From: a virus | Virus record (IMG/VR): IMGVR_UViG_3300009285_000007 | Location: 1-59,345 of that record | Reading direction: 5' to 3' (one strand) | DNA length: 59,345 nucleotides | Shown here: positions 14,050 through 58,988 of the stretch, piece by piece | How the letters are laid out: each line of letters starts with the position of its first letter | Numbering within the stretch: position 1 is the stretch's first letter | Notes under the pieces: model-generated | Database searches by the model: none | The model's input: only the letters and a program-made list of their open reading frames with translations | What the model was told of the DNA's origin: nothing | Program-made: the position numbers and the translations under genes

Positions 14050-15443
14050 CGTGGGCGAATGAGTCATACTGTAAGTGGCTTTCAAAGAAGATGGAGACGA
14101 GCACGCCAGTCGGGCTTTCTCCATCAGACATACACCTGGGCGAGTATCTGTTCGGCTTTCAAGCTGACCTCGTGAGGTGGGCGCTTGTCCGCGGTCGGGC
14201 CGCAATCTTTGCCGACACCGGGCTTGGCAAGAGTCTGATGCAGCTCGAGTGGGCTAGACACATCGCGGAGCACGGGCGAGTGCTAATACTCACACCGCTG
14301 GCAGTGGCGCAACAGACTGTACGCGAGGCGCAGAGGTTCGGCATTGACGCCACGTATTGCCGTGATGATGACGGGTCGCGGATCGTCGTGACGAACTACG
14401 ACATCCTCGACCGCTTCGATCCGTCGCGATTTGTCGGCATCGTGCTCGATGAGAGTAGTATACTAAAGAGCTTCAACGGTGCTACTCGTAACGCACTGAT
14501 CGGTCAATTCGGTGCGACACCATACCGCCTTGCGTGCACCGCAACGCCGGCACCGAACGACTTCACAGAGTTGGGGAACCATTCGGAGTTCCTGAGCATC
14601 AAATCGCGCACGGAGATGCTCGCAGAGTACTTCGTGCACGACGGCGAGACCACCCAAGAATGGCGACTCAAAGGCCACGCCGTGGATCAATTCTGGCGCT
14701 GGGCGTGCGGCTGGGGCGCCATCGTGCGCAAGCCGAGCGACCTCGGATACGATGACGGCAACTTCGCGCTCCCCCCGCTGCGCATGCATGAGCACGTGTT
14801 GAGGGTCGACCACACGGCCGCGTGGCAATCCGGGATGCTGTTCGCCACGGAGTCGATGACACTCTCGGACCAGCGCGCCACACGCCGGGCAACGATTGAT
14901 GACAGGGTATCGGCCGCATGTGAATTGGCTGCCGGCGATGAACCTGTCCTAATCTGGTGTGAGTTGAACGCCGAAGGTGACGCACTGGAAAAGTCGATAC
15001 CGGGTGCCGTGCAAGTCAAAGGCTCTGATTCGCCAGACGTGAAGGAGGATCGGCTGCTCGGCTTCGCGGATGGCAAGTATCGCGTTCTGGTCACGAAGCC
15101 AAGCATCGCGGGCCATGGTATGAATTGGCAACACTGCGCCAGACAGATATTCGTCGGCGCGTCACACTCCTACGAGCAAACCTACCAGGCTTTGCGCCGG
15201 AGCTGGCGATTCGGCCAGACGAGGCCGGTTGACGCGTTCATCATTCGCGCCGAGACGGACGGCGCAATCGTCGCGAACTACAAGCGCAAGGACCACGACG
15301 CTCAGTTGATGTCGGTAGAGGCGTCCAAACACGTGCTCGGCGCCGTGCGCGAGGCAATCGGCGCGACGCGGAGAGAGTGGAACGACTACAGCGCAGAAAC
15401 TTCAATGCGCATCCCGTCATGGTTGCGCGCGGAGGCGGCATGA
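14046..15443 (+). CDS. SNF2/DEAD-like superfamily-2 helicase
   Basis: ADTGLGKS (motif I), VLDESS (motif II), C-terminal helicase motifs (VTKPSIAGHGMNWQ, QALRRSWRFGQ). ATGA start. Confidence 0.9.
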   Translation: MTWANESYCKWLSKKMETSTPVGLSPSDIHLGEYLFGFQADLVRWALVRGRAAIFADTGLGKSLMQLEWARHIAEHGRVLILTPLAVAQQTVREAQRFGIDATYCRDDDGSRIVVTNYDILDRFDPSRFVGIVLDESSILKSFNGATRNALIGQFGATPYRLACTATPAPNDFTELGNHSEFLSIKSRTEMLAEYFVHDGETTQEWRLKGHAVDQFWRWACGWGAIVRKPSDLGYDDGNFALPPLRMHEHVLRVDHTAAWQSGMLFATESMTLSDQRATRRATIDDRVSAACELAAGDEPVLIWCELNAEGDALEKSIPGAVQVKGSDSPDVKEDRLLGFADGKYRVLVTKPSIAGHGMNWQHCARQIFVGASHSYEQTYQALRRSWRFGQTRPVDAFIIRAETDGAIVANYKRKDHDAQLMSVEASKHVLGAVREAIGATRREWNDYSAETSMRIPSWLRAEAA

Positions 15444-17380
15444 AGGTCATCAACCAAGCACACGGCGAGCGGTTCGCCATCTACAATGCGGACTGCGTCG
15501 AGGCACTGCGCGGGTTGCCGGATAGCTCCGTGCACTACTCCATCTTCTCCCCGCCGTTTGCGAGTCTGTACACCTATAGCGCTTCTCCGCGCGATATCGG
15601 CAACTCACGAGATTACGCGGAGTTCACAGAGCATATGGGCTTCATGACCGGTGAGTTGCTCCGTGTCACGAAGCCAGGCCGGTTGCTGTCATTTCACTGC
15701 ATGCTGCTGCCGACAAGCAAGACTCGCGACGGATACATCGGGCTGCGTGACTTCCGTGGCGACCTCATCAGAGCATTCAATCTTGGCGGGTGGGTGTTTC
15801 ATTCGGAAGTAGCGATCTGGAAGGATCCAGTCACGGCCATGCAACGGACGAAGGCGCTGGGCTTGCTCCACAAGCAGATCAAGAAAGACGCTGCGATGAG
15901 TCGCCAGGGGATCAACGACTATTTAGTGACGATGCGACGGCCTGGCGAGAATGACGAGCCAGTCGCACACAAGGATGATCCGCTCGGTAATGATGTCGAG
16001 GTGTGGCAGCGGTACGCATCGCCGGTGTGGGCCGTAGCAGGAGAGCCGGACGACGAGGGTATGTGTCGCATGACACAGGACATCAATCCCAACGAGACGT
16101 TGCAGTATCGCAGTGCTCGCGAGGACAAGGACGAGCGCCACATCTGCCTTGCCGAAGGGTCGCTTGTGCTCACGCGCGAGCGTGGCTACCAGCCCATCGA
16201 GATCGTTGAGCCGGGGGAACACGTCCTCACGCATCATGGCCGGTGGCGCCCGGTGTTGGCTCGGTGCTGTAACGGCACCAAGGGCACGATCCGTGTGCAG
16301 GCCCAAGGCGTTGCCAACCTGATCGCGACTCCAGACCACAAGCTCTACGCCAGGGTGGCAAGCGGGGCGCGCGCGAAGGAACTGGCACTGAAAGCCGACC
16401 CGACATGGATTCAAGCATCGAAGACCACTGGGTCATACCTCAACCTCAAGCTGCCTCCGGTGGAGGAGAGCGAGTTGTCGGCCGAGGAGTGGTGGATCGT
16501 CGGCCGCTGGCTCGGAGACGGCCACCGCGGAACTCGCCGCACCAGTGGCGCTCGCGGAGCAGGCTTTGGCGAATTCATCGTGTCGTGTTCGCATGAAGAG
16601 GCACCGGGGCTCATCGAGAGGCTGGGGTCACACGCCGGACAGGTCCACAAAATCACGGCGACGCAGATTACGCTCCGCGGGCTCCGCCACGTCGTGCGCG
16701 AGACTCTCGATAGGTGCGGCGAGGGCGCCGCAAACAAGCACCTGCCCGGCGAGGCGGCGGCACTTTGCCAAGAGAAGGCCGAGGCCCTGCTTTCGGGTTA
16801 CCTGTCGGCTGATGGCCATTACGTTTCGAGACACGACCGCCATTGCTCCTCGTCGATCTCACGCGCGCTACTGCTCGGCATGTCGCTCGTCGCGATGCGC
16901 GCACGTGATGTGGTTGCGAGCGTCTATGCGGGCCGTCCAGACAGGGGTGGTGTCATTTGCGGACGAAACGTTCACATGGCGCAGGACTGGATCTTCTCAT
17001 TCAGGGGCAGCAACGGTTATCGGAAGTCCGGGTGGATCGACGAACTGGGTTCGTGGCGGAAGGTGCGCAAGATTAATGATGCCGGAGAGCGGCGTGTCTG
17101 GGACCTGCAGGTAAAAGAAGACGAGTCATTCACTGCTGAGGGGTGCGTTGTTCACAACTGCCCGCTGCAACTCGAAGTCATCCGTCGCGCGGTCAGGCTG
17201 TGGACGAACCCCAACGACATCGTGCTCTCGCCATTCGCAGGTATCGGATCTGAGGGCGTAGTCTCCATCGAGGAGGGCCGACGGTTCGTCGGCGTCGAGC
17301 TCAAGCGGAGCTACTACGAGCAGGCCACGCGCAATCTCGCCGAAGCGGAGAACCCGCGGCAAGCAAGCCTGTTCGCGTAG
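15440..17380 (+). CDS. Beta-class N6A/N4C DNA methyltransferase interrupted by an intein (precursor 646 aa)
   Basis: IFSPPF (motif IV) at the N terminus and VLSPFAGIGSEG (motif I) at the C terminus. A 338-aa insertion between ...DERHI and CPLQLEV has intein hallmarks. Confidence 0.9.
   Translation: MKVINQAHGERFAIYNADCVEALRGLPDSSVHYSIFSPPFASLYTYSASPRDIGNSRDYAEFTEHMGFMTGELLRVTKPGRLLSFHCMLLPTSKTRDGYIGLRDFRGDLIRAFNLGGWVFHSEVAIWKDPVTAMQRTKALGLLHKQIKKDAAMSRQGINDYLVTMRRPGENDEPVAHKDDPLGNDVEVWQRYASPVWAVAGEPDDEGMCRMTQDINPNETLQYRSAREDKDERHICLAEGSLVLTRERGYQPIEIVEPGEHVLTHHGRWRPVLARCCNGTKGTIRVQAQGVANLIATPDHKLYARVASGARAKELALKADPTWIQASKTTGSYLNLKLPPVEESELSAEEWWIVGRWLGDGHRGTRRTSGARGAGFGEFIVSCSHEEAPGLIERLGSHAGQVHKITATQITLRGLRHVVRETLDRCGEGAANKHLPGEAAALCQEKAEALLSGYLSADGHYVSRHDRHCSSSISRALLLGMSLVAMRARDVVASVYAGRPDRGGVICGRNVHMAQDWIFSFRGSNGYRKSGWIDELGSWRKVRKINDAGERRVWDLQVKEDESFTAEGCVVHNCPLQLEVIRRAVRLWTNPNDIVLSPFAGIGSEGVVSIEEGRRFVGVELKRSYYEQATRNLAEAENPRQASLFA
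16145..17158 (+). mobile_element. Intein with LAGLIDADG homing-endonuclease domain (338 aa) inside the methyltransferase
   Basis: Starts CLAEGSLVLTRERGYQPIEIVEPGEHVLTHHG (blocks A/B). Two LAGLIDADG-like motifs (WWIVGRWLGDGH, LLSGYLSADGHY). Ends VWDLQVKEDESFTAEGCVVHN, followed by the +1 Cys (CPLQ). Confidence 0.85.
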
Positions 17381-18684: not shown

Positions 18685-18778
18685 CCTGCCCACGCTGCGG
18701 AACTGAGTTGCGAGCACGGCTGCTGATCCGCGGCGTGTGGCGGTGGGTGTGTCTGCGGTGTGCGGAGAGGAGCGAGTG

Positions 18779-18779
<1 letters not shown>
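18681..18779 (+). CDS. Tiny Zn-ribbon protein (32 aa)
   Basis: MTCPRCGTELRARLLIRGVWRWVCLRCAERSE. ATGA overlap upstream and TGATG downstream. Confidence 0.5.
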
Positions 18780-19807
<1,028 letters not shown>

Positions 19808-23303: not shown

Positions 23304-23684
23304 GTGGTGAAGCGCAAGGCAACGAAAGCGGCGGCTAGAAAGCCTCGTGCTGGCAAGAATGGAGCATCACGCGGCCCGCATCGCTGGGCCCCTGGGCAGT
23401 CCGGTAACCCGCTGGGGCGCGTGCCTGACGAGGAGCTAGCCAACGCGAGAGAGGCGGCGCGCAGACTCATCTTGCCGCACGCGCAAGACCTCGTTCAGAC
23501 GCTCGTTGACATTGCGAACAGAGGCAAGAGCGAAAGGGCGCGCATTCACGCCGCCGAGGCGCTGCTTGACCGCCTTTATGGCAAGGCCCCGCAGAGCGTA
23601 GAAGTCACAGGGAAAGACGGCGGACCGGTCGGCCAGATCATCGTCCGCTTGGTGAAGCCCGGCGAGGATGGTGTCAGTGCGTGA
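23304..23684 (+). CDS. terS: Terminase small subunit (DUF5681-like; WAPGQSGNPLGR motif)
   Basis: AGGAGG RBS and GTG start. The motif and the position before TerL support the call. Confidence 0.75.
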   Translation: MVKRKATKAAARKPRAGKNGASRGPHRWAPGQSGNPLGRVPDEELANAREAARRLILPHAQDLVQTLVDIANRGKSERARIHAAEALLDRLYGKAPQSVEVTGKDGGPVGQIIVRLVKPGEDGVSA

Positions 23685-24933
23685 CATCCATCTAGACCTA
23701 CCAGAGAAGATCGGCTTCATGCTCGAGCCCGCGCGCTACAAGGCAGCTTATGGCGGCCGCGGGTCTGGGAAGTCGTGGGGGTTCGCTCGCGCCGCCCTGG
23801 TCTACGCGCTTGAGCGCCGCCGCCGTATTCTTTGTGCGCGCGAGCTCCAGCTTTCAATCCAGGACTCAGTCCACAAGCTACTGAAAGAGCAGATCGAAGC
23901 CCTCGGCGTTGCCTCCGACTTCGAGGTGCTACAGACTGCGATCCGCGGGCGCAACGGATCGGAGTTCATTTTTAGTGGGCTTCGCAGCAACATCACCAAG
24001 ATCAAGTCCATGGAGGGGGTTGATGTCTGCTGGGTGGAGGAGGCAGAGGTTGTTAGCGAGGACAGTTGGAAGGTTCTCATTCCGACCATCCGCAAACCCG
24101 GCTCAGAGATCTGGGCGAGCTTCAACACCGGCGAAGAGACAGACCCGGCTTATCAGCGGTTCGTTGCTCACCCGCCGCCCGGCGCTCGTGTTGTCGAGAT
24201 AAATTCCGAGGACAACCCATGGCTGCCGGAAGAGTTGCGGCGTGAGCGCGAGTACCTGTACAGCGTCGACCCGGAGGCGGCAGCGAATGTGTGGGGCGGG
24301 AAGCCGCGGCGCAACAACAACGCCAACGTGCTCCGCGGCCGCTACGTCGTCGAGCCGTTCGAGCCGCAAGAGGACTGGAGTGGCCCGTACTATGGCGCCG
24401 ATTGGGGCTTCGCCAATGACCCCACCGTGCTCGTTCGCGAGTGGGTGCACGGGCGGACGCTCTACATCGAGCATGAGGCGTATGGGCTCGGCATCGACAT
24501 TGACGATACGCCGGAGTTGTTCAAGCGCGTTCCCGAGTCGCAACTGCACGTCATTCGCGCTGACAGCGCCAGGCCGGAGACCATTTCGCACATGCGCCGG
24601 CACGGCTTCGAGCGCATGGAGGGGGCGATCAAGGGGCCCGGCAGCATCGAGGACGGCGTTGAGCACTTGCGCAGCTACGAGCGGATCGTCATCCATCCAC
24701 GGTGCACGCTGGCCAAGCAGCAGGCGCGGCTGTGGTCGTACAAGGTCGACAGGCTGACTGGAGACGTGATGCCCGTACTCGTCGACAAACACAACGACGT
24801 GTGGGATGCTACAAGATACGCGCTCGAGCCGATCATCAGGGCGTCCAACGCGGGCGACCTCGACGCCGACCCCGATGCCGTGGCGACTGGGTACACGTGG
24901 GGGATCGATGAGGCGGGAGATGATGATGAGTGA
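23668..24933 (+). CDS. terL: Terminase large subunit (PBSX/Terminase_3-like)
   Basis: Walker A GGRGSGKS, Walker B-like DVCWVEEAE, C-terminal nuclease region (YGADWGF...DVWDATRYA). Confidence 0.92.
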   Translation: MVSVRDIHLDLPEKIGFMLEPARYKAAYGGRGSGKSWGFARAALVYALERRRRILCARELQLSIQDSVHKLLKEQIEALGVASDFEVLQTAIRGRNGSEFIFSGLRSNITKIKSMEGVDVCWVEEAEVVSEDSWKVLIPTIRKPGSEIWASFNTGEETDPAYQRFVAHPPPGARVVEINSEDNPWLPEELRREREYLYSVDPEAAANVWGGKPRRNNNANVLRGRYVVEPFEPQEDWSGPYYGADWGFANDPTVLVREWVHGRTLYIEHEAYGLGIDIDDTPELFKRVPESQLHVIRADSARPETISHMRRHGFERMEGAIKGPGSIEDGVEHLRSYERIVIHPRCTLAKQQARLWSYKVDRLTGDVMPVLVDKHNDVWDATRYALEPIIRASNAGDLDADPDAVATGYTWGIDEAGDDDE

Positions 24934-26129: not shown

Positions 26130-26202
26130 TGACGATGACCGGCCGCCAACAGGGTGACGTGGCCACTACGCGGTGCGCACAGGCGTACCGTTGGAGGCGG
26201 CT

Positions 26203-27852
26203 ATGTCCCGACGCGGGATCCGCGGCAGGATCGAGAAGGCGGCCGGCGCGGTCGTAGACGCGGCCGGCGAGACAGCGGACCGACTGCTCAATCTGGTGCC
26301 AACGGGTATCAGCGGGTTGAAGCGCTCGGGTGGATACGTCTACGACGAATTCCATCCGCGACTCTACGGCAAGAAGGCGATCAAGACCTACCGCGAGATG
26401 GCGGACAACGACGCCGTGTGTGGATCGATCCTCTGGTCTCAAGAGGCATTCGTCCGCCAGGCACCGTGGAACCTGAATCCCGAGGACGAGGGCCAGCCCG
26501 AGGCGGTGTTCTACCGCGACCGCATTCACGAGATGTTCAACGACATGAGCCACACGCCACAGGAGATGATGAGCGACGTGATGAGCATGGTGTGGGCCGG
26601 CTACTCTTGGCACGAGATCGTCTACAAGATCCGACGCGGCAACAACCCGCTGCCGCAGCTTCGCAGCAAGCACGACGACGGCCTCGTGGGCGTGCGCAAG
26701 ATCGAGATCAGGGCGCAAGAGTCCATCGAGAGATGGGACTTTGCCGACGACGGTGGCGTGACCGGCGCGTGGCAACAGGCGTGGCCGGACTTCCGCATGC
26801 GGCATCTCGACATCAACAAGTCATTGCTGTTCCGCATCCGAGCGAACAAGTCAAACCCGGAGGGCCGGAGCCTTCTTCGCAACGCACATCGGTCGTGGTG
26901 GTTTCTAAAGCGCATCCAAGAGCTCGAGGCCATCGGCGTCGAGCGCGACATGGCTGGGCTGCTTGTCTTCGAGATGCCGCCCGAGTTTTTCAGCAGGCTC
27001 GCCACACCGAAGCAGCTCGCGGCCGTCTCGCACTGGCGCAAGATCCTGCAGCGCGCTCGCCGCGGGGAGTACGACGGGCTCCTGTTCCCCGCCGAGCAGG
27101 ACAAGAACGGCGTGACCGGGTGGAAGGCCAGACTCATGCAGTCCGGTGGTCGCCGGCCGATGGATGTGGACGGGATCATCAAGCGTCTTGAGTCACGCAT
27201 TGCGCTGTCCGTGCTCGGCGAGGCCGTGTTGCTCGGCATGCAAGGCAACGTGGGCTCGTGGTCGTTGGCATCTAGCAAGACGCACATGTTTGCGGTCGCA
27301 CTCAAAGCCGAGATGGACGCCATCGCCGACGTGTTCAATCGTTTTCTCATCCCGCGCATCATGGAACTCAACAACTGGCCGCTCGCGGCGGCACCACGCT
27401 ACGAGTTCGGCGACATCGAGAACGACGACGCGCTCGAGCTCATCAATGCGCTGTCCTCGGCCGCGTCCGCGGGAATCATCGTGCCGGACCGCTCCATCGA
27501 GACTTACCTCCGCAAGCGCATGGGGCTGCCGGCGCGCGAGGATATCGACATGTCGAGCGGGCAGGCCCAAGACGCTGTCGGGGCATTTGCAGAGCATGAG
27601 AAGGATCTCAGCGACGGCGAGCAGGATCTCGAAGCCGAGGACGCACTGAGCAACGTGATCCCGATTCAGCCGGCGACGGCGCCATCGGAGACCCTGAGCG
27701 CCAACGACGCGGCACAACTGCTTGGCGTGAGTCGGGCGGTCATCAACCGCGCGATCTCATCCGGACAGTTGCCTGGCAACAAGGTCGGCGGCGGCTATCG
27801 CGTCTTCCGCTCCGATTTGATGGCGTACATGCGCAGCCAGAGGGCAGCATGA
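26203..27852 (+). CDS. Portal protein with C-terminal excisionase-type HTH
   Basis: GGAGG RBS. KTYREMADNDAVCGSILWS... is portal-like (Mu gp29/DUF935-type from memory). The last ~50 aa, LSANDAAQLLGVSRAVINRAISSGQLPGNKVGGGYRVFRSDLMAYM, form an HTH_17-like motif. Confidence 0.8.
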   Translation: MSRRGIRGRIEKAAGAVVDAAGETADRLLNLVPTGISGLKRSGGYVYDEFHPRLYGKKAIKTYREMADNDAVCGSILWSQEAFVRQAPWNLNPEDEGQPEAVFYRDRIHEMFNDMSHTPQEMMSDVMSMVWAGYSWHEIVYKIRRGNNPLPQLRSKHDDGLVGVRKIEIRAQESIERWDFADDGGVTGAWQQAWPDFRMRHLDINKSLLFRIRANKSNPEGRSLLRNAHRSWWFLKRIQELEAIGVERDMAGLLVFEMPPEFFSRLATPKQLAAVSHWRKILQRARRGEYDGLLFPAEQDKNGVTGWKARLMQSGGRRPMDVDGIIKRLESRIALSVLGEAVLLGMQGNVGSWSLASSKTHMFAVALKAEMDAIADVFNRFLIPRIMELNNWPLAAAPRYEFGDIENDDALELINALSSAASAGIIVPDRSIETYLRKRMGLPAREDIDMSSGQAQDAVGAFAEHEKDLSDGEQDLEAEDALSNVIPIQPATAPSETLSANDAAQLLGVSRAVINRAISSGQLPGNKVGGGYRVFRSDLMAYMRSQRAA

Positions 27853-50346: not shown

Positions 50347-51081
50347 CTACCATCTAGCGTCAAGCGCCACCCTCCGCACCACGTCTCCATAGTATTTCCT
50401 CTCCCACTCACGGCGTCCGAAGCCCGCTCCGGGTTCGCCACCGATGTGATCGACACGCAGGCGCTCGCGAGGGAGAGATCCGCCGTATGACATAGCATAT
50501 ACGGGGTGGATCGGAAGATCCTCGCGTGCGAGATAGGCGAACACATCGAGGATCGTCCAGTGCGCAAGCGGGGCGCAGGCAATGTTGCTCGTCTCTCCCC
50601 ACCGACGCACGCGCATGCGACGCGCGCTCGACTCATCGGCGCGGATCCCGCTCACGCGCGGGGTCTGCATGTATGATGTACCGATGGCCTCGCGCATGAG
50701 TCTGTCTGAGCACGCGCACGGCACGTCTGCCGGGCAGTCGCAGCCGCATTCAATCTCCATGTACTCGTACGGATAGCGGAGCAGGAACGCATCGCGGACG
50801 CGGACGTTGTCCGGGTTACTCAGTCGGCCGAATAGCGTATGCACCATCTTGCGACAGCCCGCGACCCAGGCAAGGTGGGCCATAACCACTGAGTCCTTAC
50901 CCCAACTCGCCATCACGACAGCGTCCGGATGCTGGGCGCGGAATGCAGCCAAAACGTCCAGAGCTCGTGAGATAAGCCGACCCATACGCGCGCTGTGTGC
51001 CAGAGCACGATCTTGACGCTCCAGCCTTGTCCACTCCGCGATGTCCGCGTGCGTGTGACGCCGACTCTGAATCAAGGGCAT
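50347..51081 (-). CDS. PAPS-reductase-family (CysH-like / PP-loop) protein
   Basis: SWGKDS PP-loop, VSGIRADESSARR motif, inserted Cys cluster IECGCDCPADVPCAC. Start MPLIQSRRHT. Confidence 0.8.
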   Translation of the reverse strand: MPLIQSRRHTHADIAEWTRLERQDRALAHSARMGRLISRALDVLAAFRAQHPDAVVMASWGKDSVVMAHLAWVAGCRKMVHTLFGRLSNPDNVRVRDAFLLRYPYEYMEIECGCDCPADVPCACSDRLMREAIGTSYMQTPRVSGIRADESSARRMRVRRWGETSNIACAPLAHWTILDVFAYLAREDLPIHPVYAMSYGGSLPRERLRVDHIGGEPGAGFGRREWERKYYGDVVRRVALDARW

Positions 51082-51344
51082 CGTGGCCACCACTTGTCGT
51101 GTCCCGCGAGCACCGTCATGAGCTGCGGTGCGCCGTTCCCATTCTCGGCCACACGGAACCGCAGCCGTCGTGGCCGGCCTTCGCGGTAAAGCCACACCCC
51201 AGGTTCGATCTCCTTTACCCTCCGCGCTCGCTCGCTGCAACGAACGAGTTCAGCCAGTGCTTGCTCGTAGTTCGCTAGTGGGTCGACGCGCTCGACGTAG
51301 CGTCGCACCGCATGTGGTGTGATGAACCAGCGGCCAGTGATCAT
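51072..51344 (-). CDS. Hypothetical protein (90 aa)
   Basis: ATG at 51344 gives an ATGA overlap with the stop of the sigma-like gene. MITGRWFITPHAVRRYVERV... Confidence 0.6.
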   Translation of the reverse strand: MITGRWFITPHAVRRYVERVDPLANYEQALAELVRCSERARRVKEIEPGVWLYREGRPRRLRFRVAENGNGAPQLMTVLAGHDKWWPRCP

Positions 51345-51859
51345 ACAGCTCTCCGTGGTATATTGCACGTCGGCTTGAGCGCACCCGGAGGTGAGTCAAT
51401 CCGGCCGAGCGCCCGCTGCAGTGATCGCGCAAAGTTGTTCCCGGCATCACATACACCGAAGATCCTGGCCGCATCACTCTTGTCGACAGAGTACACTACG
51501 TGCACGAGCGCTGCACGCTGATGCGGCGCCATCGCGGTCCATGCCACTCGTGCCCTCCACGCGCACAGCGCGGCCAACTCATGAGGTGCGTCAACGGCGG
51601 GCTCTCTCGCCATCCATGCGTGCAACTCCCGTGACCGCCTCCACCGGTTACTGACTCCACCGAAAATCCTACGCGCCGCAGACACCGCATAGCGCCTACC
51701 CCAGAACGCAGTCGGTGGAGCGCCGAACCTGGCATGCGCAACGACGAACGAGGCCATTACCTCCTGCGCCACGTCCGCCCGCCAGTGCCGCATGGCGCGA
51801 GGCACCACGCGACGGGCTTGCCTGCGTGCGATGCGGTAGGCGCAGGTGATGTCAATCAT
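51341..51859 (-). CDS. ECF-type sigma-70-like protein (regions 2 and 4)
   Basis: ADVAQEVMASFVVAHARF is region-2-like. MAPHQRAALVHVVYSVDKSDAARIFGVCDAGNNFARSLQRALGRI is a region-4 HTH-like segment. ATGA overlap with the csf3-like gene. Confidence 0.6.
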   Translation of the reverse strand: MIDITCAYRIARRQARRVVPRAMRHWRADVAQEVMASFVVAHARFGAPPTAFWGRRYAVSAARRIFGGVSNRWRRSRELHAWMAREPAVDAPHELAALCAWRARVAWTAMAPHQRAALVHVVYSVDKSDAARIFGVCDAGNNFARSLQRALGRIDSPPGALKPTCNIPRRAV

Positions 51860-52593
51860 GCGGCGAGTACCTCCCCGGTCACCGGATGGATGACCGGCTC
51901 CGACAGGTCAGGGTCGCGTGCATAGGTGTGCCGGCTCACGTGATGGTACGGAGGTCGGATGCTCGCGATGCTCTGTGCCTCCGACTCGCGGCAGGGCATG
52001 CGACGCTGCGACATGACCCATTCGGCGGACACGTCAGCCGGCTCGACCGCCCACCGCATGACGCGCCCCTGGCCCTTCGCGCAGTGCTTGCCGATTCCCA
52101 GGACGTGCGTCTGCAGGAGTCGCAGCAACTCGTCCTTGTCGCCGATGCAGAACCACCGCACCTCGTGCGCGAACGACGTGGGTAGTTTGAGGTCGTACGC
52201 CTTCGCTGGGCCGCACCCGGCGTTGACCGAGACCGCGTCCGTGTACCGCGTCATCTGCTCACCGGCGATGCGCTTGCGCACCTCGAACACGCTGCGCTTG
52301 CGCCACACAGCCAGCGCCCGCGTAGCCATCCAGCCCCACACACGACCGCTCTCGTCGCGCAATCTGTCGTCGACGCCGGGCGGTATGTCCGCCTCGACGG
52401 ACCACCGAGCGATTGGCAGCGGGAAGTCAACCGCCCACGCCGTGTTGATCGGCGGCAACTCCCACCGCTGCTCTTCGGTGAGGTCGCGGTATGCTGCCCA
52501 TGCCACGATGCCATCGAGGTGCATGCCGTCGTCGAAATGGACGACCGGTTCGCTGAGTCTGGCTGTGACGAGTAGTGACTCGTGTGCGCTCAT
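51856..52593 (-). CDS. csf3: Cas5-like RAMP (type IV Csf3-like)
   Basis: MSAHESLLVTARLSEPVVHFDDGMHLDGIVAWAAY and the Gly-rich loop LGIGKHCAKGQGRV. ATGA overlap with the csf2-like gene. Confidence 0.6.
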   Translation of the reverse strand: MSAHESLLVTARLSEPVVHFDDGMHLDGIVAWAAYRDLTEEQRWELPPINTAWAVDFPLPIARWSVEADIPPGVDDRLRDESGRVWGWMATRALAVWRKRSVFEVRKRIAGEQMTRYTDAVSVNAGCGPAKAYDLKLPTSFAHEVRWFCIGDKDELLRLLQTHVLGIGKHCAKGQGRVMRWAVEPADVSAEWVMSQRRMPCRESEAQSIASIRPPYHHVSRHTYARDPDLSEPVIHPVTGEVLAA

Positions 52594-53600
52594 CCCGCCG
52601 CCCCCTGTAGCGCCGCCAGGATCTCCTCCCGCCGCTCGCGCAGGTGCGCCACGTAAGCGCCATCCCAAGACGCACCAGCGGCCGGGACGAGGCTCTTGTC
52701 GGCCGCCATGGCGGGTGCGATGATGCCGCGGATCTGCCCCGACCACTGCATCGAGACACGTCCGAGGCCGATGCTGCGCTTCGCTCCGAGGTAGTAAATC
52801 AACCCGCCGTCACCGGCCTGGTCCTGTGCCGCATGCGAGAGCGAGGCCTTCAACGCGGCGAGTTCCATCAGGTCGAGGTCACGGTAGTAGAGCCCGCCCC
52901 AGAGCTTCGCCCCGGGCTTGATGATCTCGCTGTCGTAGATCATCTGGGATGTACCCTCCATCTTCGTACGTGCCTCGGCCTCGAGAGACTCGCTGACCTT
53001 GCCCTCGAGCTTCAGTCGCTCGGCGTTCGGCAGCAAACGCGCGACATGGGGTGAGCGACTGGCCTCGTGGCGCGTTCCGAACGTCTCGCCTCGGAAGATG
53101 CCGGAGCGACGGCGCGCATGCGGCAATTCCTGTGCGTCTATTGGTAGGCGCCAGGCGTTCTCCTCGCAGACGAGGTGGATGTTGTCGACGCTGAGCTTGC
53201 TGTGTGCCATGTAGTTGCCGGCGCTGTAGCCGCACACGCCGAGGATGGGGAACAGCTCCGCGAGCGCACGGGCCTTGCTGAGGTTGACCGCGCTGCCGCT
53301 CTTGCTCAAGTGGCCGCCGGAGAACAGAAGGTCAACTACCGGCTTGGTGAGCGAGCCATCCGCAACGCCCATCGCAGTAAGCGCGTGATCGACACCAGCC
53401 TCGCGGATGGTGTGCTTGAAACTGTTGCCACTAATGAATGGCACCTCCTCATCCTCGCCGTCTGGCGTCGTGATCTCCTGCACCCGCAAGAGCGCCGTGT
53501 TGCCCTCAGTGCCAGCCCCGTGATGGAGCGCGTCAAGCGCCGTGGCGATGAAGCTCAATCTGCCTGACTGCCTGGTGACCTGCTCTGCTGTTGCAACCAT
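52590..53600 (-). CDS. csf2: Cas7-like RAMP (type IV Csf2-like)
   Basis: VPFISGNSFKHTIREAG (Cas7-type motif) and the C-terminal Gly-rich LGAKRSIGLGRV. GAGGAGG RBS. 336 aa. Confidence 0.65.
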   Translation of the reverse strand: MVATAEQVTRQSGRLSFIATALDALHHGAGTEGNTALLRVQEITTPDGEDEEVPFISGNSFKHTIREAGVDHALTAMGVADGSLTKPVVDLLFSGGHLSKSGSAVNLSKARALAELFPILGVCGYSAGNYMAHSKLSVDNIHLVCEENAWRLPIDAQELPHARRRSGIFRGETFGTRHEASRSPHVARLLPNAERLKLEGKVSESLEAEARTKMEGTSQMIYDSEIIKPGAKLWGGLYYRDLDLMELAALKASLSHAAQDQAGDGGLIYYLGAKRSIGLGRVSMQWSGQIRGIIAPAMAADKSLVPAAGASWDGAYVAHLRERREEILAALQGAAG

Positions 53601-53601
53601 A

Positions 53602-53997
53602 CTATGCCTCCTCTTGGTGGGTGAGTTCGTCGAGTTCCTTGCGGAGCACCTTCTTGGACTTCCTCTGCTCGTCTCGCTTCGCCTGTGCCATCGCCACGAT
53701 GTAGACCGCATCGCGCCTGCAGAGGTGACGGAAGCGCTTGAACGTCGCCCGCTCGACCAGCGCCTCACTGAGCGAAGAGAGATAGTTGGCTGTGTCGTTG
53801 GTGACCGCCGGGATCTGGAGCTTGCGCGCCATCTCGCTCGTGAACCGGCCCACCGTCTCGGCCCGGTTCGCCGCGCTTACCATTGCCGCCCGCGCCCTCG
53901 GCCACCAGTCCAGCGCCCGGATCGTGTCCTGCGGTACCGACCGCATCATTGCCAATATCAGATCGACCGCCAGGTCCGTCAGTTGCTCGTCCGTCAT
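53602..53997 (-). CDS. cas11: Cas11-like small helical subunit
   Basis: 131 aa, helix-former rich, basic C terminus. Sits between the csf1-like and csf2-like genes. Strong GC3 in this frame. Confidence 0.5.
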   Translation of the reverse strand: MTDEQLTDLAVDLILAMMRSVPQDTIRALDWWPRARAAMVSAANRAETVGRFTSEMARKLQIPAVTNDTANYLSSLSEALVERATFKRFRHLCRRDAVYIVAMAQAKRDEQRKSKKVLRKELDELTHQEEA

Positions 53998-54706
53998 CTC
54001 GCATATCCTTTCGGAGGAAGCTCACCACGAGCTCCAGTTGCTTGCTGTTATGGTACGGCTGCAGCACCGGCGCGTACTCACGCCACGTGGCGATGCCCCA
54101 CTTGTGTAGCGTCGAGGGTAGGGGGCAGCCGGTGAAGATGTCGTTGCGCGAGTAGCCAGCGATGTAGAGCGATCGTGCTGCGCCCCACAGCGCGCGGAAT
54201 TCTGCGGCGCGCATCCGCACGTCGTTCCGCTCGTATCGGATCTGCCACTGCTGTCCGGCCGGCAGGTTGATCGGCGCGAACGGCAGCGTGTGAATCTGGC
54301 CGCTGTCCGCGATAGCCATTGCCCACTGGCATGACGGAGGGCTGAGCAGAACGGAAAGCAAGTGGGCGACATCGGCCTTGTTCGTCGCGTAGACACACGG
54401 CCCACCGATGGGTCCGCGACTCGGCGGGCACTGGCCGTCAGAGCGCCAAAGCACGGACCATGATCGCAGCGTGTTTGGCGGCTTGCCGCGCATCGTCCAG
54501 ACGCAGGCGCGGCAGATGTGAGACGATGCCGGCACAGCGAGGTCGCGGAAGTCGGAGAAGCTGCTGCCGAATGCCAGCGATGAGAGTATGCCAACGTTGC
54601 CGCAGGGTGCACCGCAGAGCGTGCACAGGTCGTCGGTGGATTCAATCGGCCGCTGACAGTCTGGCTCGCCGCAGTCGTGCCAGATGTGTTGCGTCACGCT
54701 GGGCAT
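53765..54706 (-). CDS. csf1: Csf1/Cas8-like large subunit with N-terminal Zn-finger clusters
   Basis: AGGAGG RBS. HDCGEPDC...CTLCGAPC...CRAC. The last ~77 codons overlap the cas11-like gene out of frame and look non-coding. Confidence 0.55.
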   Translation of the reverse strand: MPSVTQHIWHDCGEPDCQRPIESTDDLCTLCGAPCGNVGILSSLAFGSSFSDFRDLAVPASSHICRACVWTMRGKPPNTLRSWSVLWRSDGQCPPSRGPIGGPCVYATNKADVAHLLSVLLSPPSCQWAMAIADSGQIHTLPFAPINLPAGQQWQIRYERNDVRMRAAEFRALWGAARSLYIAGYSRNDIFTGCPLPSTLHKWGIATWREYAPVLQPYHNSKQLELVVSFLRKDMRDDGRATDGPGGRSDIGNDAVGTAGHDPGAGLVAEGAGGNGKRGEPGRDGGPVHERDGAQAPDPGGHQRHSQLSLFAQ

Positions 54707-54897: not shown

Positions 54898-55205
54898 GGG
54901 CCACCTCCCAGCGTGAGCTGCCTCGCTCTCATCCTCGCCGCGCGCTTGACCACGTCGACAGCCTCGCCGCCGGCCACGCTCGCCACGGCCGACCGCACCG
55001 CACCGTCGACGAGCTCGCGCACCCACTCCTCCTCAGCCAGTCGCTCGACAGCGCGCCGCACTTGGGAGCGGACTGCGGCGGCCATGGCGCCGTCGCTGTG
55101 GCCGCTACCCACGTGCAGCTCCGCGTCGAGGGCGCGGCGGGCGGCGTCCTCGATTGCGCCCACGGGGAGGCGGACTGTGATTTCGAGCCACTCAGAGTTA
55201 GTCAT
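54894..55205 (-). CDS. Hypothetical protein (103 aa)
   Basis: ATG at 55205 overlaps the radical-SAM gene's stop by 8 nt. MTNSEWLEITVRLPVGAIEDAARR... Confidence 0.65.
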   Translation of the reverse strand: MTNSEWLEITVRLPVGAIEDAARRALDAELHVGSGHSDGAMAAAVRSQVRRAVERLAEEEWVRELVDGAVRSAVASVAGGEAVDVVKRAARMRARQLTLGGGP

Positions 55206-55920
55206 GTGGCGCCTCCAATACCTTCCGCAGGTCGGCCTTGAGCACGTAGCGCCGGCCCGTCGCCTCGCAGAGGTCCACCGCATCGCGAGCGAACCGCGGC
55301 CAGTCGATCTCGCGAGCCCGAGCGTCGTGGTTCCAGCGGCCGATCTTGAACACGTCGACGTAGCCCTTGGCGCGCCGGATGAGTTCGAGCGTCTGCTCTG
55401 GGTCGATCACAGGCTCGAGGCTCGCCCAGGTCTCGATGCCGCGCGCGTGCGCTTCGGCGAGCGCGATCAGACGCTCGTGTGGTAAGGCCGCGTGCGGTTC
55501 CCACTTCCGGGAGTCGCTCGCCATTGCGAACGTCAGTGTAGCGCCGTACCGGTCGATCCCAGGCCGCAGCATGTCGAGGTCGCGCATGCTGCGCTCGCCG
55601 CTTTTGGTGAGGATGACCACGCGGCACCTGGCGCGCTGGATGATGTCGATGGCCTCGCGCGTGGTGCCGTCGCTGCCCGGCCCGTAGGGGTCGGTGGTGA
55701 AGCACAGCAGGACCTCGCGGCCGGCGTGGCGTGGCGCCTCCTTGACTAGCGACTCGAGCACGCCCGGGCGCGGCCCCTGCTCGTCGAACGCATCGCGGTG
55801 CATGTGCAGCGCGCGCGGGGCGTAGCAGTACAGGCACCCGTGGCCGCAGCCGCGGTAGAGGTTGACGGCGCGCTCGCAGTATTCGAGCGCCTTGCCCTTG
55901 GGCTCGTAGATGGACTGCAT
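55198..55920 (-). CDS. Radical SAM protein (SplB/COG1533-like)
   Basis: NLYRGCGHGCLYCYA contains the CxxxCxxC cluster at the N terminus. TIM-barrel-like length. Confidence 0.8.
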   Translation of the reverse strand: MQSIYEPKGKALEYCERAVNLYRGCGHGCLYCYAPRALHMHRDAFDEQGPRPGVLESLVKEAPRHAGREVLLCFTTDPYGPGSDGTTREAIDIIQRARCRVVILTKSGERSMRDLDMLRPGIDRYGATLTFAMASDSRKWEPHAALPHERLIALAEAHARGIETWASLEPVIDPEQTLELIRRAKGYVDVFKIGRWNHDARAREIDWPRFARDAVDLCEATGRRYVLKADLRKVLEAPHD

Positions 55921-57155: not shown

Positions 57156-57499
57156 GGGGCGGCGGCCTTTGGTGCGTGGTCCACGATCTCGGCCACGGCA
57201 CGGAGCGTCTCGAGCGAGGCCTTGTCCATGCCCTCGCGTGTCCACGCGCGCACGCGGGCCAGGCATCTCTTGCGCTCTAGCTCGTGCTCGTGCTCCAGCG
57301 TAGCGACCTCGATCCAAGATCGACTCCAGCCAGATTGACGCGGGTATGTGCTGCCGTAGTGCGTCCACTTCGATCCGTCGCTCAGCTCGATGAAGCGCTT
57401 TGTGACGCGCTCAATCTTGCGTATCGCGCTCAGGCCGCTGTCCCAGCCGCCACTGTAGACGGCGACGGACATGCCTGGCGTCAGTTCGGTCGTGATCAT
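57152..57499 (-). CDS. Hypothetical protein (115 aa)
   Basis: AAGGAAG RBS. The ATG gives an ATGA overlap with the integrase stop. Confidence 0.7.
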   Translation of the reverse strand: MITTELTPGMSVAVYSGGWDSGLSAIRKIERVTKRFIELSDGSKWTHYGSTYPRQSGWSRSWIEVATLEHEHELERKRCLARVRAWTREGMDKASLETLRAVAEIVDHAPKAAAP

Positions 57500-58809
57500 T
57501 TGGCTTCCTTTTGGGTGGAAGAGGCGGCGAAATCCACGTCGAGCAAGATACTCGGCGGCGAGTAGCGGCTCCGTCGCCGGAACGGAATCACCTGTGCCGA
57601 GTGCATGTGCCGACCACATGGTGCGTCGGCCTGCACTTCGGCGTGATCGGCAGCGCACGCTTGACATGCGGGACAGCTACTTGCATCACCCTGGATGTGG
57701 TCCGCTCGCCTTACAAGCCGGGGGTCCTCGGTTCGATCCCGAGTCCGCCCACGCACTTGCGGCACCTGTGCCGAGTCACCTGTGCCGAGTAGGAGCCGCT
57801 CCGCTGCGGCGGCAGTCGCGGCGGCGCGCGCTTCGGTGCTGTGCTGGTAGAGACTTGTCGTCCGTAGATCTCGATGCCCGAGGCTCTCGAGCGCCGCCCA
57901 TGGGTCGCCGCTGCCGGCGACTGCGAGCGTCGCGAACGTGTGCCGCAGGTCTCGCAGCTTGATCCTCTTGCCGTAGCCGATCCTCTCGGCCGCCTCGCGG
58001 TATGCTCGCCTGTGCGTGCCCTGCGCCAGAACATGCTCGGCCTCGGGGTCGGCCTCGACGCGGCGACGGATGATCTCAGCCGCAGCGTCGGTGAGCCCGA
58101 TCACGCGCTCGCGCCGCGTTTTGGCGTCACCCGCCGGCACCCGGAGCACGTAGCGCGTGGCGCTCCCGGCCGGGGCGGGCTCGACCCATGAGGCGCGCAC
58201 GCGCTTGAGCTCGGCGGCGCGGAGCCCGGTACGGAGGCAGAGCTCGACCTCGTCGCGGGCGTCCTGGTGGAGCTCGGCGAGCCATACGGCGAGTACCTCT
58301 GGTGGATGCAGTTGGCCGCGGGCCGACTCGAGCGGGGCGTCGCTGCGGATCTTCGGTCGCGCCGGCACACGACCGATGTGGCCGCGCTGGCGAGCCAACC
58401 CGAGCGCGCGGACTAGCGCCTGCGCCTCGCGGCGGATCGTCTGACCACGCACGCCAGCCTCGCGGCGCGCGGCCACGTAGCGCGTGATCGCCACCTCGTC
58501 GATCTGCTGGACGGGCTTGTCGCCGAAGTGATCGGCAAGCGGCGCCCAGACCCACTCGAGCGTCTGTGCTCGCGACTCGGCTACGCCTTCGGCCACGGCA
58601 CGCTCGACATCCCACTCTGCAAGCCTTGCCACGTCTATGGCTCCCCGCCGGCAGCGCGGTGCGGCCGCTTCTGCGTCAGCCCGTTTGCGGCGCTCCTCTG
58701 TCGTAGCCTGTCGCCGATCTGTCGTGCGAGCGGAACCGCGGTGCTCCTTGCCTGCGACGGTAAAGCGGTACCACCAGCGGCGTGATCCGGGGCGTCGATA
58801 CAACGACAT
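57496..58809 (-). CDS. int: Tyrosine integrase
   Basis: MSLYRRPGSRRWWYRFTVAGKEHRGS arm-binding N terminus. RDLRHTFAT...LGHRDLRTTSLYQH catalytic region. The ORF continues about 115 aa past the catalytic Tyr, through the attP core. AGGAGG RBS. Confidence 0.9.
   Translation of the reverse strand: MSLYRRPGSRRWWYRFTVAGKEHRGSARTTDRRQATTEERRKRADAEAAAPRCRRGAIDVARLAEWDVERAVAEGVAESRAQTLEWVWAPLADHFGDKPVQQIDEVAITRYVAARREAGVRGQTIRREAQALVRALGLARQRGHIGRVPARPKIRSDAPLESARGQLHPPEVLAVWLAELHQDARDEVELCLRTGLRAAELKRVRASWVEPAPAGSATRYVLRVPAGDAKTRRERVIGLTDAAAEIIRRRVEADPEAEHVLAQGTHRRAYREAAERIGYGKRIKLRDLRHTFATLAVAGSGDPWAALESLGHRDLRTTSLYQHSTEARAAATAAAAERLLLGTGDSAQVPQVRGRTRDRTEDPRLVRRADHIQGDASSCPACQACAADHAEVQADAPCGRHMHSAQVIPFRRRSRYSPPSILLDVDFAASSTQKEAK
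57589..57602 (+). repeat. 14-bp motif CACCTGTGCCGAGT, copy 1 (candidate integrase arm-type site)
   Basis: Identical to two tandem copies at 57763..57790 on the other side of the attP core. Confidence 0.5.
57705..57751 (+). other. attP core: 3' portion of a tRNA-Val(UAC) gene (anticodon loop to discriminator), not a complete tRNA
   Basis: CTTACAA anticodon loop, GGGTC variable loop, CTCGG-TTCGATC-CCGAG T-arm, TCCGCCC acceptor strand plus A. Closely parallels the E. coli tRNA-Val(UAC) 3' half from memory. No matching 5' acceptor strand or D-arm upstream. Confidence 0.7.
57763..57790 (+). repeat. 14-bp motif CACCTGTGCCGAGT, tandem copies 2 and 3
   Basis: Read directly. Starts 12 nt after the tRNA fragment end. 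Confidence 0.5.
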
Positions 58810-58988
58810 GCGGTGTCCTCCTGAGTGTCGATCCAGGCGTCGACATCGGCCGTTCGATAGCGTACCCGGCCGGCGATCCGCAACCTCCGCGGTCCATCGT
58901 CGGCTCGGTGCGCGAGCCAGGAGACCGAGCACCCGATCCGCTCGGCGGCCTGTGCGACAGTGAGCAAGTCATCGCGCACGGCTTGCAC
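58635..58988 (-). CDS. Excisionase/AlpA-type HTH protein (Xis-like)
   Basis: LLTVAQAAERIGCSVSWLAHRADDGPRRLRIAGRVRYRTADVDAWI is an HTH_17-like motif. GTG start. The C-terminal ~58 codons overlap int out of frame. Confidence 0.6.
   Translation of the reverse strand: MQAVRDDLLTVAQAAERIGCSVSWLAHRADDGPRRLRIAGRVRYRTADVDAWIDTQEDTACRCIDAPDHAAGGTALPSQARSTAVPLARQIGDRLRQRSAANGLTQKRPHRAAGGEP

Follow-up and report, generated by a model that had tools for sequence, protein, structure and literature searches.

A divergent sigma-70-family gene inserted into the type IV-B cassette of a groundwater phage, beside a conserved small CRISPR-linked protein

The stretch of DNA analysed here (59,345 nucleotides, called the window below) is IMG/VR virus record IMGVR_UViG_3300009285_000007, a temperate tailed phage from a groundwater metagenome, whose type IV-B cassette of CRISPR-associated genes has two open reading frames (ORFs) of 172 and 90 amino acids, orf172 and orf90, between csf3 and a cysH-like gene. 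A first-pass annotation, made by a model from the sequence without database searches, had described the first as an extracytoplasmic function (ECF)-sigma-like gene and the second as another extra gene. Our analyses showed that orf172 is a real gene, and we conclude that its product, although very divergent, is a genuine ECF-type (group 4) member of the sigma-70 family. The conserved mobile unit is csf1-cas11-csf2-csf3-orf90-cysH, into which orf172 is an insertion in this lineage, and we judge it reasonably probable that orf172 is a phage ECF-like sigma factor, expressed together with the cassette, that turns host RNA polymerase to phage promoters, i.e., an ordinary regulator and not a partner of the Csf proteins. 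The 90-residue ORF, in turn, is not an extra gene, since it recurs as a conserved cassette member in 16 or more distinct type IV-B loci.

Sequence, fold and family of orf172

The gene and the parts of its product are:

51341-51859, minus strand: orf172, 172 amino acids, divergent ECF-type sigma-70-family protein (family profile, AlphaFold 2, Foldseek)
51662-51859, minus strand: sigma2-like domain, residues 1-66, three helices, with the region 2.2-like motif RADVAQEV
residues 67-92: low-confidence linker between the sigma2-like and sigma4-like domains
51395-51583, minus strand: sigma4-like helix-turn-helix (HTH) domain, residues 93-155, with profile alignments to 3vep_D and 9isn_F

When 1.84 billion representative proteins were scanned exhaustively with HMMER, 15 homologues of orf172 were found (161-228 amino acids, E-values from 3e-11 to 1e-3). 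In the alignment of this family (A1), the motif W-x-E-D-I-A-Q-E is conserved with D29 invariant, a second motif, E-L-A-P-L-A-L-W-R-L-Q, is accompanied by an invariant R102 and by W107, conserved in at least 90% of the members, and the C-terminal HTH ends in A-L-x-R-I-D. The best match of the A1 profile in the PDB was 9isn_F, the Streptomyces ECF sigma-ShbA (PMC12019637), with E=1.5e-8 and with profile positions 23-151 aligned to chain residues 50-189, that is, from region 2.2 to region 4.2. Next came the sigma factor 5uxx_A (4e-3) and 3vep_D, region 4 of M. tuberculosis SigD (5e-3), and 10 of the 14 PDB matches listed for the profile were sigma factors. The region-2-like and region-4 HTH segments to which the first-pass annotation had drawn attention are the stretches that align to ECF region 2.2 (EDLAQEV) and region 4.2 in the 9isn_F match.

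With A1 as input, the AlphaFold 2 model had a mean predicted local distance difference test score (pLDDT) of 83, with three helices in residues 4-66, four in residues 93-155, and a linker with pLDDT below 50. When this model was compared with the PDB by Foldseek, the first 18 places were all taken by sigma factors, the top matches being sigmaE/RseA (1or7, probability 0.96), AlgU, M. tuberculosis SigL and SigH, BldN and WhiG; matches to single domains were very weak for region 2 of sigmaE (2map and 4lup, E 5-9) and weak for region 4 (3hug, 2h27 and 2o8x, E 0.8-9). Among viral models (BFVD), the top match was a phage sigma factor, as were about half of the top 25 by their annotation, including the "RNA polymerase ECF sigma factor" of Cronobacter phage GAP52, and one member of the orf172 family bears the name sigma24 protein in JGI annotation. 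It is because the profile match at 1.5e-8 spans both domains, the model has the sigma2-linker-sigma4 layout and the best fold matches are sigma factors that we regard the 172-residue protein as sigma-like, as the first-pass annotation had proposed.

In common with ECF sigma factors of known structure (sigma-ShbA, 9ISN; E. coli sigmaE, 1OR7), orf172 has about 170 residues, a D-x-x-Q-E region 2.2, a flexible linker and a sigma4 HTH, whereas it differs from them in being phage-encoded, in being missed by the Pfam and NCBIfam models, and in having neither an adjacent anti-sigma gene nor a promoter motif that could be found. Phage ECF-like sigma factors such as that of GAP52, which are among its best viral structural matches, are likewise small two-domain proteins of tailed phages encoded in an early or accessory operon, and at two loci (L017 and L019) the orf172 homologues have genes for RusA, a methyltransferase and terminase downstream of them. 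Unlike these, orf172 has no tblastn similarity to GenBank phages, and it sits inside a Cas-like cassette, not a replication or regulation module. It is common for a phage to encode a sigma factor, and phiEco32 gp36 is another that is ECF-like.

A word-indexed search of 5.8 billion proteins returned only orf172 itself, the sole member of its 90%-identity cluster; phmmer against the PDB gave nothing at E<=10; megablast of the region and tblastn of orf172 and orf90 against GenBank phages gave no match; and nothing was confirmed from IMG/VR pattern scans with Csf2, orf172, and the family alignments A1 and A4. Its being alone in this cluster, a GC content at third codon positions (GC3) of only 0.69 and a poor AlphaFold model from the single sequence (pLDDT 39) might suggest that the ORF is open merely by chance, as can happen in high-GC DNA, or is a pseudogene in decay. 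We can hardly credit that explanation, given the 15 homologues with their conserved motifs, the rise in pLDDT to 83 with the alignment, a ribosome-binding site, and the exact coupling of start and stop to the neighbouring genes.

The insertion and its probable role

The other genes of the cassette, which sits in a leftward (minus-strand) operon downstream of the integrase gene, are:

53765-54706, minus strand: csf1, Cas8-like large subunit (TIGR03114 5e-10; PADLOC Csf1_0_IV 2e-28)
53602-53997, minus strand: cas11, type IV small subunit (PADLOC typeIV_Cas11 1e-14; 54-57% identity to L002, L004 and L006)
52590-53600, minus strand: csf2, Cas7 of type IV (PADLOC typeIV_Cas7 7e-64; phrog_22746 2e-30)
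51856-52593, minus strand: csf3, Cas5 of type IV (TIGR03116 6e-21; PADLOC Csf3_0_IV 6e-29)
51072-51344, minus strand: orf90, 90 amino acids, conserved CRISPR-linked small protein (57-70% identical homologues in related loci)
50347-51081, minus strand: cysH-like accessory gene of the PAPS-reductase family (PF01507, PAPS_reduct, 4e-12; phrog_2302 7e-17)

The csf1, cas11, csf2, csf3 and cysH-like genes are all present in canonical type IV-B order (NCBIfam, PADLOC), and only the two further ORFs set the locus apart from a canonical cassette of that type. Neither Cas6 nor adaptation genes were among the NCBIfam and PADLOC matches in the cassette, and the window held no CRISPR array-like repeats and no match to an Rfam family. 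PF27782 was carried by 17 csf3 homologues, and the CysH-like protein is 43% identical to its homologue in locus L004. Type IV-B cassettes are known on prophages and phages (bioRxiv 10.1101/270033; PMC10848311), but that of the window differs from the canonical cassette in its two genes between csf3 and cysH, one of which, orf90, recurs across a whole clade of such cassettes and was not met with in published descriptions.

The embedding of both ORFs in the operon, as first described from the sequence, was confirmed, since the genes on either side are the csf3 and cysH-like genes of a type IV-B locus by NCBIfam, PADLOC and Pfam. The overlaps were also as described: the ATG of orf172 (51859) overlaps the csf3 stop as ATGA (the end of csf3 reads ...GCC GCA TGA), and the orf172 TGA (51341-51343) overlaps the orf90 ATG (51344), again as ATGA. 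The cysH-like gene starts at 51081, overlapping the end of orf90 by 10 nucleotides, and GGAGG-like ribosome-binding sites precede both orf172 and orf90. Elsewhere in the operon, csf2 and csf3 overlap as ATGA and the cas11 stop is 1 nucleotide ahead of the csf2 ATG. The way in which orf172 overlaps its neighbours fits both co-transcription and translational coupling; co-transcription of the cassette and orf172 is suggested by the overlapping junctions, the lack of any sigma70-like promoter in 47.5-59.3 kb, operon included, and a count of one terminator-like hairpin in the operon versus 2.9 expected by chance.

Comparison with other loci showed how exceptional this arrangement is. The comparison loci were the contigs of Csf3 homologues, plus IMG/VR, metagenome, genome and plasmid loci obtained from pattern scans for the orf90 family. 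No relative of orf172 was found by tblastn, or by the family hidden Markov model (HMM) run over every ORF, in the 17 other distinct type IV-B loci, i.e., the gene is present in 1 of 18; the 17 take in the five closest of the loci compared. In the clade to which the window belongs (Csf3 55-66% identical), csf3 is followed directly by the orf90 homologue and then by cysH in L002, L004 and L006, whereas in L005 a different, HTH_11-like gene comes between csf3 and orf90. The csf3 gene also abuts orf90 in L020, L023 and L047, and likewise in L034, where only part of csf3 aligned, while L007 and L008, phage cassettes that are less closely related, have no orf90, and csf3 there overlaps cysH directly. 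The genes flanking the window cassette have no counterparts in any related locus, and the cassette therefore moves as a unit.

The relatives of orf172 occur in quite different company. One (P0034), from a phage contig of 39 kb, has small genes on one side and a Dcm methylase gene on the other, and lies upstream of RusA and terminase genes. Another (P0036) belongs to a prophage of a Myxococcaceae genome, where a LexA-like repressor gene precedes it by two genes and where genes for RusA, a methyltransferase, an HNH protein and terminase lie downstream. A third (P0024) is downstream of an integrase gene, with no csf gene on the short stretch available. From the homologues one might guess at a Myxococcota-like host. 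No csf genes were present within 10 kb on either side of P0034 and P0036 or on the short contigs of P0019 and P0020, and tblastn found no csf, orf90 or cysH in the retrieved contexts of these four. The family is thus a small one, found otherwise in regulatory regions of phages and prophages. Because orf172 is absent from the other loci, and because its relatives have no csf neighbours, we consider it a sporadic insertion and not a type IV-B component, which is the outcome that the first-pass annotation had itself named as refuting its reading. That a sigma factor is a component of type IV-B systems, or links the Csf complex to transcription, is not supported.

The other suggestion in that annotation, that the protein redirects host RNA polymerase to phage promoters, is the one that we favour, by inference, as somewhat better than an even prospect. 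The lineage would have acquired orf172 into the csf3/orf90 junction of the mobile cassette, which may simply be a permissive junction. The protein may bind host core RNA polymerase through its region 2.2-like DVAQEV helix and its sigma4 domain, and may direct the polymerase to phage promoters, whether of middle/late or accessory genes, just as other phage-encoded ECF-like sigma factors direct host polymerase to phage promoters. Its position in the csf operon would then set only the timing of its expression, with no Csf partnership implied.

Could the sigma-like protein nevertheless be a functional type IV-B component that connects RNA polymerase with CysH or the Csf ribonucleoprotein, or that transcribes the RNA loaded by the complex? 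Inside the cassette it has translational coupling to the gene before and the gene after it, there are other HTH genes inside type IV-B cassettes (L005 and L035), and nothing forbids such a role as the function of type IV-B is unknown (PMC8175902). There is also a CRISPR-linked precedent, the only one, in type III-E loci, with which rpoE co-occurs and in which its product binds Csx30, the protein cleaved by Craspase (PMC9825189). In both systems an ECF sigma gene is found within a CRISPR-Cas locus, but rpoE is recurrent there and has Csx30 as a partner, whereas orf172 is a single case, in a type IV-B locus that is on a phage and lacks a protease and Csx30/31. With 1 of 18 distinct loci, the frequent co-occurrence seen for the type III-E RpoE is lacking; moreover, family members elsewhere have no csf neighbours, and tight overlaps are usual at every junction of this phage operon. 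A role as a component is, in our view, quite improbable.

More weight attaches to the possibility, itself an unlikely one, that the protein has a sigma fold without a role in initiation, e.g., that it is an autoregulator of the operon using only its sigma4-like HTH, or a polymerase-binding decoy against host sigma factors. None of the curated sigma models detects it, a cognate promoter motif did not emerge, and region 4 is the better matched in a single-template comparison, although this comparison, an hhalign alignment of A1 with E. coli RpoE, was uninformative because its template is a single sequence (only region 4 aligned, E=0.037, probability 1.4%). Small HTH regulators also recur in type IV-B loci, as at the same junction in L005, and HTH and LRP genes have been drawn in such loci (bioRxiv 10.1101/270033). 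On the other side, all of the family shares a conserved N-terminal domain (the region 2.2-like EDIAQE and the invariant D29), which can be aligned with the sigma2 domain of an ECF sigma factor of known structure, and the two domains and the length of the linker are typical of complete ECF sigma factors.

Our preference for an ordinary phage sigma factor has to be set against a number of observations that weigh the other way. Both RNA polymerase binding and initiation-factor function are predicted properties of orf172. Taken alone, it has no Pfam match even at E<=10, no NCBIfam match at E<=0.1, and no PHROG or PADLOC match, and the search with Sigma70_r2/r4 and ECF profiles proposed at the outset gave nothing (Pfam at E<=10, NCBIfam ECF models); even within the family, Sigma70_r2 was reached by only 2 of the 15 members, with a best E of 0.003, below the cut-off. 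The Foldseek E-values were all at least 0.02, and the whole-chain TM-scores were about 0.25-0.35, the latter low as would be expected of two mobile domains. The proposed genome search for ECF-type promoters revealed no repeated motif, as k-mers and gapped dyads in 27 intergenic regions were not above shuffled controls, a weak test based on rough gene calls. Composition does not mark orf172 alone as foreign, a notion we rejected, since orf90 and cysH share its lower GC3 (0.68-0.71 for the three, versus 0.80-0.86 for the csf1 core, cas11, csf2 and csf3). The arrangement occurs in one genome only, so that lineage-specific functional co-option of orf172 is conceivable. The type IV-B comparison leaves out the contigs of the two closest Csf3 relatives (P0003 and P0004). 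Lastly, the csf3/orf90 junction of L005 contains, in place of orf172, a 67-residue gene that is HTH_11-like (E=6e-5, at 1578-1781), and L035 has a related HTH in the interval from cas11 to csf2 (1489-1587, equivalent to about 5509-5607 of L011), hints that regulators inside the cassette may not be random. One might go further and imagine the cassette junctions as slots for interchangeable DNA- or polymerase-targeting factors (the sigma factor here, HTH_11 in L005, HTH in L035) that direct the guide-less Csf ribonucleoprotein and its modifying enzyme (CysH or radical SAM, with orf90) to their sites of action, with the sigma factor of this phage coupling type IV-B to RNA polymerase, be it physically or functionally; we think this decidedly improbable.

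What orf172 adds, then, is a very divergent ECF-like family that the standard models miss, and it changes little otherwise; its location, with n=1, is a curiosity and apparently incidental.

The orf90 family and variants of the cassette

The wider interest of the locus lies with its smaller ORF. The profile of the orf90 family (A3) had 38 HMM matches, 30 of them distinct sequences, with the signature G-[RK]-W-F-I-T-P-H-A-V, in which His11 is invariant, and a conserved R-x-R-F strand, in which the second Arg (R62) is invariant. Homologues with 57-70% identity occupy the stretch between csf3 and cysH in L002, L004, L005 and L006, which marks orf90 too as a real gene and not an ORF that is open by chance, and members stand beside csf genes in these four and in L010, L011, L013, L023, L025, L034, L036-38, L040, L041, L043 and L047; the more distant cassettes L007 and L008 have none. 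Their position varies: orf90 is directly between csf3 and cysH in the window, L002, L004, L006 and L047 (the last being plasmid RHOApd of the cultured Rhodovastum atsumiense, where it is annotated as "hypothetical"), after cysH in L011, L040 and L041, between csf1 and csf2 in L043, before or after a radical SAM enzyme of about 500 residues in L010, L013 and L036-38, and adjoining a 206-residue N6/N4 methyltransferase gene in L010, L023, L024 and L012.

The family also extends to bona fide type I-C loci: L042 (5932-6261), L045 (5938-6261), L044 (5884-6255), L028, L029 and L031. In Thermoanaerobaculia metagenome-assembled genomes (MAGs) and related soil contigs (L042, L045, L028, L029 and L031), orf90 is between cas2 and an 87-repeat CRISPR array, and in a Myxococcales MAG (L044) it is immediately upstream of cas3-cas5c-cas8c. 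Copies without visible cas neighbours occur in L012, L021, L032 and L046/L030. The gene is accordingly a cassette member and a recurring companion of type IV-B and type I-C loci, a family of which we found no description in the type IV literature available.

As to what orf90 might be, it had no match in Pfam, in PDB sequences or in PADLOC, and its PHROG matches were marginal and to unannotated families. In UniRef, the homologue from Rhodovastum (WP_150041041) goes under the name "DUF4258 domain-containing protein", but this label (PF14076) could not be reproduced, a Pfam scan of 19 members at E<=10, that protein included, giving no match. With DUF4258, orf90 shares a similar size and an N-terminal ITxHAxxR motif. 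DUF4258 is a toxin family of the RelE/ParE superfamily with the BECR fold, of unknown activity (PMC11980606); unlike DUF4258, orf90 has no antitoxin-like partner and is embedded in cas operons, not in two-gene toxin-antitoxin modules, and RelE/ParE-like chains were not among the PDB profile matches of the orf90 family. A fusion of CysH with orf90 in L011/L035, apparent from a long stop-to-stop frame, was rejected, as the two tblastn hits are in different frames. We tentatively suggest that orf90 probably serves type IV-B and type I-C systems as a small cofactor that binds nucleic acid or acts like an RNase.

The overlap of the orf90 start with the orf172 stop raises one further explanation for the insertion, namely that the two genes are a sigma/anti-sigma pair that was inserted together, as ECF sigma genes are usually followed by the gene for their anti-sigma factor. 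The orf90 homologues in more than 25 other distinct loci are never accompanied by a sigma-like gene, however, and sigma-family members elsewhere have no orf90 nearby, which makes such a pair very improbable; on its distribution, orf90 was rejected as an anti-sigma factor.

In some phage type IV-B cassettes, CysH is replaced by the radical SAM enzyme of about 500 residues (Radical_SAM_N2 plus Radical_SAM), sometimes accompanied by the 206-residue methyltransferase:

L010:6511-8004, L013:6430-7995 and L036:3537-5006, also L037 and L038: radical SAM enzyme of about 500 amino acids
L010:5918-6538, L012:8264-8878 and L024:953-1564: 206-amino-acid N6/N4 methyltransferase

Where this replacement has occurred, orf90 is always retained; in type IV-B cassettes its companion is a nucleic-acid-modifying enzyme, whether CysH, the radical SAM enzyme or the methyltransferase. 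A cassette with orf90, and with radical SAM enzymes as alternative partners, makes up a type IV-B variant not described before. What type IV-B systems do is an open question (PMC8175902; PMC12669027), and in orf90, which goes with type IV-B, is kept through the CysH swap or in the company of a methyltransferase, and occurs in type I-C, there is a new and testable handle on these guide-less complexes. Its link to type I-C is one of two leads that we consider worth following, the other being the clamp-binding-like Csf1 tail described below.

Two neighbouring genes may be recorded here. A radical SAM gene of the window (240 amino acids, 55198-55920, minus strand; PA0069/Rv2578c-like, with a weak DrmC match and a GC3 of 0.90) lies about 0.5 kb upstream of csf1, with two small ORFs between; it is unrelated to the enzyme of about 500 residues in L010/L013 and is not conserved beside other cassettes. 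In L008, a phage contig of 44 kb, a 625-residue Cas12f1-like/TnpB-type gene (PF07282; L008:11111-12988) lies downstream of the type IV-B cassette at a distance of about 1.6 kb.

Csf1 tails and other genes of the phage

The Csf1 protein of the window has a C-terminal tail of 73 residues (53765-53997, minus strand), encoded in a frame other than that of cas11, which it overlaps, and ending in SQLSLFAQ. Tails of this kind, low in complexity, of about 70-160 residues and overlapping cas11 in a different frame, are shared by its relatives:

L010:3104-4159: Csf1, ending TQLDLFARAR*
L013:3369-4304: Csf1, ending EQLNLFDW*
L011:4160-5308: Csf1, ending VQRSLFGD*
L004:934-1986: Csf1, ending GQGDLFDR*
L036/L037: Csf1, with RQLDMF 24 residues from the end

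The consensus for binding to the bacterial beta sliding clamp is QL[SD]LF, which the QLxLF terminus of Csf1 resembles, making it a candidate clamp-binding site by its sequence. Across all fetched DNA, Q-x-[SDN]-[LM]-F is found within the last 12 residues of 11 out of 2085 ORFs, and 8 of the 11 are Csf1. No paper connecting Csf1 with the clamp was found in the literature searched. If real, a terminus of this type would suggest that the complex is recruited to replicating DNA. The csf1 gene was missed by gene callers in L001 and L004, probably because of its overlap with cas11. A clamp-binding-like end is also seen in a 667-residue methyltransferase/helicase-like protein of the replication module of the window (15377-17380, plus strand), which ends in RQASLFA*.

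The phage nature of the window is evident from its genes for TerL, portal, tape measure, helicase, a DnaD-like loader, integrase and amidase, of which all but the amidase were identified by PHROG matches, including the following:

23668-24933: large terminase, TerL
26173-27852: portal
57496-58932: integrase

Within the gene for the DnaD-like helicase loader (18737-19807), the hexamer AGCGAC is repeated in tandem for 17.7 copies, at 19247-19354.

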